A stretch of DNA of 44,405 nt, from sequence record PQ571288.1; one strand, 5' to 3'. A program made the translations under genes and the position numbers. Position 1 is the stretch's first letter. Each line of letters starts with the position of its first letter. This DNA comes from Escherichia phage EC3-1. The notes under the pieces are model-generated. The model did not search any database and had not been told where the DNA came from. It worked only from the letters and a program-made list of their open reading frames with translations. Shown here piece by piece: positions 41,542-42,293 of this stretch.

Positions 41542-41840
41542 TTGTGTCTCCAGATGTATTGTCGTCTCTGCGGTTTCGTCGGGATATCATCATACCCCAG
41601 CGATTTCCAGTAATTAAATAACCTATTAGCGATTGCTGCGCGTTCCTTTGTTTTAAACTCACCGAGATTCACGGCCTTCCCGTTCTGGAATCCACAGGCG
41701 CGGACTGCTTTGCGTCTGGCCTGAATATCAGGGTACAGCGCGTTACGACGGCGCTTGTATATCTGTGTTTTAGCTCTCGGTGACAGCGGCGCAAGGCCGC
41801 TTCGTTTCAGGATGTCAGTTGGGAGGCTCATGTTCCACAA
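41538..41840 (-). CDS. Hypothetical basic protein, possible degenerate AP2-like DNA-binding domain
   Basis: KAVNLGEFKTKERAAIANRLFNYWKSLGYDD pattern; tentative. Confidence 0.45.
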   Translation of the reverse strand: MWNMSLPTDILKRSGLAPLSPRAKTQIYKRRRNALYPDIQARRKAVRACGFQNGKAVNLGEFKTKERAAIANRLFNYWKSLGYDDIPTKPQRRQYIWRHK

Positions 41841-42021
41841 TCTCCGCGAGTTTAAGTATTAACGGGCACTTAAACCCCTCTCCAGGGTAGCGCCGGTTTA
41901 TATCCGCAAGTAATGCGATAACGGCGGCCTCAAGTTTCGCGTAGTCTTCGTAACCTACCCAATCACCCTCTTCACACGGCTCAGCAATATAGTTCCCGCA
42001 TATATCTAATCTCTGCACCAT
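41815..42021 (-). CDS. Small acidic protein, paralog of 42021..42293
   Basis: Shared MVQR...YEDY pattern with the upstream gene; ATG 42021 with RBS GGAGTGGAG (track opens at 42066). Confidence 0.45.
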   Translation of the reverse strand: MVQRLDICGNYIAEPCEEGDWVGYEDYAKLEAAVIALLADINRRYPGEGFKCPLILKLAEIVEHEPPN

Positions 42022-42293
42022 CACTCCACTCCTTCCACATGTGTAACTGACCCACAGTTCGTGCACTCGACATAATCCGGGAACTGGTCTTTATATTTCT
42101 GTAACTCAGCGTTTACTTCTGCCAGTCTCGCCACGAGTTCCTCGATTTCCATGTCCGTAGTGGTTATATAGTCCTGGAAACTACCATCCAGTTCCTTGTA
42201 GTCTTCGTAGCGAACAACCTCGACCCAATCTTCGTAGAACGCATCCCCGCCTAATTCAGTCCCTCGAACCTCATATCTCTGCACCATAATCAC
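42021..42293 (-). CDS. Small acidic protein with C-terminal CxxC
   Basis: MIMVQRYEV...YEDYKEL...CTNCG; paralog of the downstream gene. Confidence 0.5.
   Translation of the reverse strand: MIMVQRYEVRGTELGGDAFYEDWVEVVRYEDYKELDGSFQDYITTTDMEIEELVARLAEVNAELQKYKDQFPDYVECTNCGSVTHVEGVE

Follow-up and report, generated by a model that had tools for sequence, protein, structure and literature searches.

Two adjacent small acidic proteins of Escherichia phage EC3-1 share a short N-terminal module with a hypervariable core and probably belong to a modular family in a variable Kagunavirus slot

The internal proteins of T4-type phages share a common capsid-targeting sequence and are encoded in a hyperplastic locus; in the capsid-targeted proteins of T4, this N-terminal tag is cleaved by the prohead protease and the protein is packaged in the virion. 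In the lambdoid and other tailed phages, the mosaic exchange of modules at conserved boundary sequences is an established concept. A further route to variation is represented by the proteins of diversity-generating retroelements (DGR), such as Mtd of a Bordetella phage, in which a localized hypervariable segment is borne on a conserved scaffold. Here, we describe two adjacent genes, termed A and B, of Escherichia phage EC3-1; the window analysed is the complete genome of this Kagunavirus (Guernseyvirinae), as deposited under PQ571288.1 with 44,405 nt. As judged from alignments and family profiles, both small proteins share an N-terminal module of ~33 residues (“N-module”) with a hypervariable core, of which no description was found in the literature.

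Gene A (42021-42287) and gene B (41815-42021) lie on the minus strand, as do all their parts discussed below. A encodes 88 aa, starts at the ATG at 42287 and ends with a TGA stop codon at 42021-42023, which overlaps the start of B as TGATG; B encodes 68 aa, with its ATG at 42021 and its stop codon at 41815-41817. A Shine-Dalgarno sequence is present for both genes, AGGAG preceding the ATG of A. The initial annotation had placed the start of A at 42293, an in-frame GTG upstream of this ATG; several relatives have different bases at this position but retain the ATG of MVQRY. A is composed of the N-module, a coiled-coil-like middle and a conserved tail, and has 459 homologues; B consists of the N-module and a tail named after its RYPG motif, and has 106 homologues, the best of which is 99% identical. 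Almost all of these homologues stem from contigs of ~44 kb.

The resemblance on which attention to these genes had been based, i.e., near-identical starts encoding MVQR, a common V.YEDY..L motif and an acidic composition, is borne out and, by the alignment statistics, is real and non-random. The 13-mer ATGGTGCAGAGAT is found exactly at 42275-42287 and 42009-42021 and nowhere else in the window; the motif reads VRYEDYKEL in A and VGYEDYAKL in B, with YEDY occurring only in these two open reading frames (ORFs) in a six-frame translation of the window, and the calculated pI is 4.12 for A and 4.41 for B. BLASTP aligns the two proteins with 17/64 identities (24.3 bits, E 4e-5). In Smith-Waterman comparisons with 5000 shuffles, p was 0.0002 for the whole proteins and 0.008 after deletion of MVQR, while the score of the N-modules alone was reached by 0/5000 shuffles; for the C-terminal parts, the similarity was not significant (p = 0.09). 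In line with this, hhalign of the A and B family alignments gave a probability of 98.1% (E 8.5e-14) over 36 N-terminal columns only. The pairwise alignment that had been suggested as a check hence reveals similarity that extends past the first four residues and stops at about residue 33. The sole nucleotide repeat between the two genes (D12) comprises 28 nt at 75% identity. Thus, the proposed paralogy stands for the N-terminal ~33 residues, for which both the shuffles and hhalign speak, but not for the tails, which are not detectably related; on this evidence, it is limited to those ~33 residues.

The N-module follows a simple plan, in which a head (MVQRY) is followed by a hypervariable acidic loop of ~10-25 residues and by a frame, (D/E)Gx(W/Y/F)VxYEDYxxLE. 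Operationally, the family was defined as M-V-(Q/K)-R-(Y/L), 10-25 variable residues and G-x-(W/Y/F)-V-x-Y-E-D-Y-x-x-L opening a helix, a pattern present in both A and B; the models obtained with AlphaFold2 (AF2) likewise place YEDY at the start of a helix. When a profile of the N-module alone was used for searching, 464 small proteins were retrieved at E <=1, including B-type ones, with the top match reaching 3e-11. Across the homologue lists of A and B (n = 459 and n = 106), the loop is not alignable between classes, of which ~49 are distinguished by an ad hoc similarity cut-off. In the variable stretch up to YEDY, D, G, E and aromatic residues are abundant, and the mean net charge is -3.8. 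Within loop classes, pN/pS (Nei-Gojobori), which constitutes a crude test on 36 non-independent pairs, amounts to 0.15 for head and frame, 0.06 for the tails and 0.36 for the loops.

Several features show that the N-module is more than a DNA linker, namely a domain at the protein level. Its low pN/pS in head and frame and its presence in the unrelated myoviruses phi92 and phAPEC8 (see below) are two of these. The conserved residues, moreover, vary at synonymous sites: across 38 gene copies, V2 is encoded by GTA or GTG, and within YEDY, TAT alternates with TAC, GAA with GAG, and GAC with GAT. Finally, in the metagenomic proteins P0243, P0255 and P0262, two copies of the module are present in one chain, each of them followed by coiled-coil-like sequence.

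In A, the N-module cassette (aa 1-33; 42189-42287), delimited on the basis of the 36 N-terminal hhalign columns, comprises the head MVQRY (42273-42287), the hypervariable loop EVRGTELGGDAFYE (42231-42272) and the frame DWVEVVRYEDYKEL (42189-42230; YEDY at 42198-42209). It is followed by the middle DGSFQDYITTTDMEIEELVARLAEVNA (aa 34-60; 42108-42188), which in relatives is either missing or swapped for one of at least five alternative cassettes, and by the tail ELQKYKDQFPDYVECTNCGSVTHVEGVE (42024-42107). This tail is nearly invariant in 49 aligned homologues and carries a CxxC..H hairpin with the conserved stretch YVECxNCGSVTHVEG, so that the part of A behind the N-module is a long helix with this hairpin at its end. 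In the AF2 model of A, residues 27-68 form a helix, for which the predicted local distance difference test score (pLDDT) exceeds 90, and residues 72-83 form a small hairpin on the conserved tail; residues 1-21 are not confidently modelled. The corresponding parts of B are the N-module cassette (aa 1-32; 41926-42021) with the head MVQRL (42007-42021), the loop DICGNYIAEPCEE (41968-42006) and the frame GDWVGYEDYAKLEA (41926-41967; YEDY at 41941-41952), and the tail AVIALLADINRRYPGEGFKCPLILKLAEIVEHEPPN (41818-41925), which represents a conserved domain, AVIALLxDIxxRYPGxxFxCP, that is also found in unrelated phages. For B, AF2 predicts a hairpin at 5-15 and two helices, with a mean pLDDT of 65 and of 46-59 in the hairpin. 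Between the two genes, a junction block (42004-42057) that is conserved in an alignment of 38 gene starts from related loci contains the end of the A tail, the Shine-Dalgarno sequence GGAG, TGATG and the MVQR start of B.

Both genes reside in a slot between two conserved anchor genes on the minus strand, which encode a 67-aa protein upstream (42290-42493; phrog_3766) and a 97-aa protein downstream (41538-41831; phrog_9632), the latter overlapping the 3' end of B by 17 nt. Copy number in related phages, which had been named as a check, is variable: among 28 related loci, this slot holds no gene in 2, one gene in 12, a remnant in 1 and two genes in 13, corresponding to 0-2 genes per slot. The gene at position 1 nearly always ends in the A tail with ELQKYKDQFPDYVECANCGSVTHVEGVE; it either lacks the middle or possesses one of at least five alternative helical middles, and is sometimes fused to a small CxxC tail. 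At position 2, at least seven unrelated tails are present in the 28 loci. Among 325 parsed relatives, up to ~50 tail clusters can be distinguished, some of which are fused or mis-parsed variants of others, as the clustering is crude.

The same parts recur in different combinations. Out of 21 loop classes with at least three members, 18 occur on more than one type of tail, and the loop class of B is found with A-type, RYPG-type and other tails. At the nucleotide level, the A cassette (42287-42187) is 82-88% identical to that of position-2 genes with other tails in the loci L170 and L166, with the identity ending at ~42187-42194, while the B cassette (42021-41925) shows 86.6% identity, ending at 41925, to a position-1 gene with an A tail in L168. 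In other contigs, a protein with 99% identity to B has any of four different partners at position 1, or no partner, in which case it comes straight after the upstream anchor. Since a chimeric gene in L009 ends in ...EHVEGVE, the 3' junction is also used for exchange. The idea of a local duplication is not supported by these data, given that the loops of A and B are unrelated and that closer relatives of each N-cassette are found in other phages, at the other slot position and with other tails. Read from these identities, the pattern is that of cassette exchange within an old modular family and not of duplication and divergence in situ.

Some loci deviate from this organization. The 41-aa remnant in L006 (4368-4493; MRVRYSDLMALEAELQKYKDQ...HVEGVE) represents a family member that is either decayed or minimal, its loop being deleted and its sequence reduced to the head, part of the frame and the A tail. 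Position 2 is occupied by an unrelated gene for a 101-aa predicted membrane protein in L160 (Kagunavirus 536P11) and by an unrelated gene for a 74-aa protein plus a 29-aa ORF in L180 (Bas76); therefore, the slot also takes non-family genes. A second recurring joint, QSGC(R/Q)KE, precedes small CxxC...CxxC modules that resemble zinc ribbons and differ in sequence; it is found in the window at the C-terminus of a 134-aa coiled-coil protein (42490-42894, minus strand), and such a zinc-ribbon-like module is fused to the A tail through loss of the stop codon in L010, L162, L163, P0001, P0019 and P0031.

Relatives outside this lineage display the same building principle. phi92 gp008 (74 aa) and phAPEC8 gp227 (151 aa) share the architecture of B, i.e., MVKRL..., a variable loop, GxxVxYEDYxxL and AVIALLxDIxxRYPGxxFxCPxIxLLA, with 47-62% identity to B in tblastn; unlike EC3-1, however, these phages are large myoviruses (Stephanstirmvirinae) and not Kagunavirus members, each has a different loop, and phAPEC8 gp227 differs from B by an extra C-terminal extension of ~80 residues. 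In metagenomic proteins, the B tail (AVxALLxDVxxRYPGxxLxCP) also occurs behind unrelated N-termini. In profile searches, residues 16-65 of B match phrog_23083 and phrog_23941 (E 2.9e-13 and 3.8e-13), whereas A does not. The 60-aa profile phrog_29624 represents a short form in which the N-module directly adjoins the A tail. Neither protein matches it over its full length, the A tail covering positions 27-60 only (E 9.4e-21) and the N-module of B positions 1-33 only (E 1.5e-3); compared with this short form, A contains an inserted middle helix segment of ~27 residues, while B possesses another tail. None of these three PHROG families carries a functional annotation.

How does this locus relate to the systems described above? 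With the T4 internal proteins, A and B have in common a short conserved N-terminal element on otherwise unrelated small proteins and phage-to-phage variation in one locus. However, their element spans ~33 residues, has a hypervariable core of its own and also occurs internally, and the phage lineage is unrelated; the likeness is a formal one, and the internal and tandem copies of the module speak against a pure N-terminal signal. As in lambdoid mosaicism, the breakpoints lie in short conserved gene starts and ends, with near-identical flanks around unrelated inserts, but the units exchanged are sub-genic (loop, middle, tail), with boundaries inside one reading frame, which therefore creates a combinatorial protein family and not merely swaps of whole genes. 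A conserved scaffold with a localized hypervariable segment is shared with DGR proteins; in contrast to these, the alleles of A and B are unrelated cassettes of differing length and not the result of adenine-directed substitutions. A DGR mechanism can be ruled out, given that no template repeat of either variable segment is present in the 44.4-kb genome. In the annotated part of the genome of the related phage Snoke (26.0-44.5 kb), no reverse transcriptase is found; the window was not searched for one.

The explanation favoured here, to which as a whole we give a somewhat better than even chance, is that A and B are members of a modular family of small acidic proteins in a variable slot of Kagunavirus genomes. 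As the sequence comparisons show, one module of ~33 residues is joined to interchangeable C-terminal tails, and diversity arises mainly via homologous recombination at conserved edges, namely around the start codon, in the YEDY..LE frame and where the A tail ends, together with its Shine-Dalgarno sequence. Recombination at these edges, and not in-situ duplication, moves loop cassettes between slot positions, tails and phages.

The rival explanation closest to the initial annotation, a recent tandem duplication in which one gene was copied in place and the copies diverged fast under an arms race, would account for the adjacency and translational coupling of the genes, the identical 13-nt start and the common YEDY motif. 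It is, however, very unlikely, considering the unrelated loops, the lack of detectable relationship between the tails (p 0.09; hhalign confined to 36 columns), the presence of the same loop classes on many tails, the single repeat D12 (28 nt at 75%) and the 82-88% nucleotide identity that connects each N-cassette to cassettes at the other position in other phages; whole-length similarity and mutual closest relationship, by which recent tandem duplicates are recognized, are both lacking in A and B. It is rather more conceivable, albeit still improbable, that head and frame constitute a common tag, which docks varied payload tails onto one invariant host or phage partner, much as the capsid-targeting sequence does for the polymorphic internal proteins of T4, with the loop being tolerated variation. 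Such a tag would be in accordance with the many unrelated tails behind one conserved N-terminal module, the stronger constraint on the frame than on the loop (pN/pS 0.15 versus 0.36) and the RYPG tail being an independent domain that is also found behind other N-termini. Conversely, drift of the loop within a class is constrained, as reflected by the latter value, and deep loop classes are maintained and reassorted, which would be needless for a mere spacer; in addition, longer proteins contain the module at internal sites and as tandem copies, in which it differs from a signal for N-terminal targeting. Obligatory processing by the HslV-like peptidase encoded next to the slot, described below, is argued against by a motif scan that did not reveal this gene in several gene-bearing loci.

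Two further alternatives were considered. If the common start and YEDY were a nucleotide-level signal only, serving as recombination linker or translational-coupling sequence, the strong conservation of the junction block (end of the A tail, Shine-Dalgarno sequence, ATGGT.CAGAGATA), its coincidence with the exchange boundaries and the existence of chimeras, e.g., that of L009 with its ...HVEGVE end, would be readily understood; yet, synonymous variation at the conserved codons, purifying selection on the frame and the encoding of the same amino-acid motif by different DNA in phi92, in phAPEC8 and at internal sites of longer proteins render this very unlikely. A host-derived decoy is a highly unlikely explanation as well. 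In this view, residues 212-285 of Enzyme I (PtsI) of the E. coli phosphotransferase system (PTS) would be the source of residues 25-88 in A-type proteins, or would be mimicked by them, and the phage proteins would interfere with Enzyme I; the segment in question reaches from the end of the swivel domain through the linker helix to strand one of the C-terminal domain. Indeed, Enzyme I (residues 209-285) is the top PDB match of the A-family profile (E 0.15), and pairwise BLASTP yields 29.6 bits with 28/75 identities (37%) over 42024-42215 of A, including VE.C.N.G.V..VEG.E; upon post-hoc scaling to the host proteome alone as search space, this corresponds to E ~0.004-0.007. Furthermore, the predicted order of hairpin, long helix and strand in A resembles that of the Enzyme I segment. 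Against this stand the lack of significance database-wide, with the next PDB matches scoring almost equally, the absence of a Pfam PEP-utilizer match at E up to 1, and the middle of the alignment, which is missing or replaced in many A-type relatives. The similarity to Enzyme I is noted as a lead only and could be due to chance, to host-derived sequence or to mimicry.

Returning to the modular family with exchanged cassettes, a function may be sketched for its members. The proteins are presumably cytoplasmic; the N-module may form a beta-hairpin that shows the variable loop on a helical stalk, and A is probably oligomeric. A and B would probably bind or inhibit proteins of the host, polymorphic ones, e.g., components of defence systems, being the most plausible candidates, and polymorphic targets of this kind would explain the persistence of many old loop classes. 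That they are small cytoplasmic acidic binders or inhibitors, in which the loop provides specificity and the tail oligomerization or a second function, is put forward tentatively as a possibility and may well prove wrong. A more far-reaching version, which we regard as speculative and doubtful, envisages a combinatorial binder library with a hairpin-on-helix scaffold, where the hypervariable acidic loop would be specific for polymorphic host proteins, such as defence-system components, and where dozens of ancient loop classes, kept by frequency-dependent selection, would be recombined with dozens of helical tails that set the oligomeric state or a second activity.

A role in an arms race, as assumed at the outset for these genes, is a plausible hypothesis. 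It is favoured by the many deep loop classes, by presence/absence variation and by free reassortment, and the former two, with the classes reassorting, fit selection by polymorphic host targets. The value of 0.36 in the loop within classes speaks against a simple arms race by point mutation; this purifying signal appears to show that the diversity is old and upheld by exchange, not by fast point mutation.

Several observations weigh against the modular-family explanation and its functional extension. The loop itself is under net purifying selection within its classes, and no signal of positive selection was detected in it by the crude test on 36 non-independent pairs. The hairpin proposed to display the loop, as deduced from the sequence pattern and weak models, is of low confidence in AF2 (46-59). 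Pfam, NCBIfam and PDB sequence searches with A, B and distant relatives returned coiled-coil noise only, and Foldseek, which was queried with the B model (pLDDT 65) only, the A model being essentially one long helix, found nothing at E <=0.001 in PDB or BFVD. The loop classes and the tail clusters alike depend on ad hoc similarity cut-offs, and the protein samples are database clusters and not a random sample of a population. Further, L008 and L011 lack both genes, and the genes are therefore dispensable. Finally, Bas73 and Bas74 of the BASEL collection are alike in having this same single gene but not in their dependence on a prophage-free host, so that the slot does not account for the BASEL cryptic-prophage phenotype.

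A DNA-mimic anti-restriction role (Ocr/ArdA-like) was considered and rejected, as only the acidity fits and no match was obtained in Pfam, PDB or Foldseek searches. Kagunavirus isolates are reported to be highly sensitive to restriction-modification systems (PMC11990801), which likewise argues against an effective role of this kind.

While mosaicism of whole genes is known from phage accessory regions, exchange here takes place within genes, at three defined joints that preserve the reading frame, and yields a large combinatorial set of proteins of 60-130 residues around an undescribed domain of ~33 residues. Should the loop indeed set the target, the family would offer a compact model, tractable by experiment, of the diversification of small phage inhibitors, and new functions in anti-defence or host takeover might be sought among its members. 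Should the loop be irrelevant, the genes would still be better annotated by module than as one family of “hypothetical proteins”. Kagunavirus phages are small, are represented in the BASEL collection and have been used for synthetic rebuilding (PMC11990801); therefore, cassette swaps are feasible.

With regard to the genomic surroundings, bases 1-141 of the window are 100% identical to bases 44265-44405; owing to this 141-nt direct repeat, which is either an assembly overlap or a terminal redundancy, the genome comprises ~44,264 bp. A 1.2-kb stretch around the two genes is matched by 322 phage records, mostly of Escherichia and Salmonella Guernseyvirinae, in a piecewise manner; none of the INPHARED records covers >=80% of the region. 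An exact look-up of the 97-aa downstream anchor protein gave no match, and a search of viral contigs with the exact 14-mer ATGGTGCAGAGATA gave only chance matches in unrelated contigs, this pattern being too short. The N-terminus of the 67-aa upstream anchor contains the hydrophobic stretch MTSILFIWVLSAGHMQL, resembling a signal or membrane anchor, and both its start codon and its N-terminal extension differ among relatives.

Between the slot and the holin genes, a gene for an HslV-family peptidase is present (41104-41541, minus strand; phrog_1040, E 2.4e-34), which did not turn up in the motif scan of several related loci (e.g., L149, L156-L158 and L160-L163) and which itself looks like an accessory gene. 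As these include loci that keep MVQR genes, the peptidase was rejected as a processing enzyme for A and B.

In Snoke, the corresponding genes sit in a block of small genes, oriented rightward, which goes on to include the lysis cassette with its holin and endolysin genes; the early region to which the initial annotation had assigned A and B is, therefore, a putative one. In the window, the block with A and B follows a terminator-like hairpin with a T-run (43153-43183, minus strand) and a promoter-like repeat (TTGCAC, 17 nt, TACTAT; 43026-43072, minus strand; families D5 and I1-I3); the hairpin is located just upstream of the repeat, and the Snoke annotation has a terminator at the matching site. 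The repeat is present in four copies inside a longer conserved element, at 43026-43072 and 146-213 on the minus strand and at 23344-23390 and 32528-32595 on the plus strand, and is promoter-like in the manner of sigma-70, the hexamers having been read by eye and not flagged by a consensus scan.

Upstream of these elements, an ORF of 66 aa (43217-43417, minus strand) resembles, by eye, a DUF551 protein, and at the matching position of related loci, one or two copies of DUF551 genes are marked by Pfam. Elsewhere in the genome, a second promoter-like repeat family, TTGACACGTGAATAGTT.GCTATTATAGTT, occurs in four copies (3970-4043, 6750-6779, 10312-10341), and GC-rich hairpins, AAGGCCCCG...CGGGGCCTT, which recur at 12970-13010, 25480-25520, 32795-32835 and 7469-7502 and are flanked by A/T runs, look like a family of bidirectional terminators.

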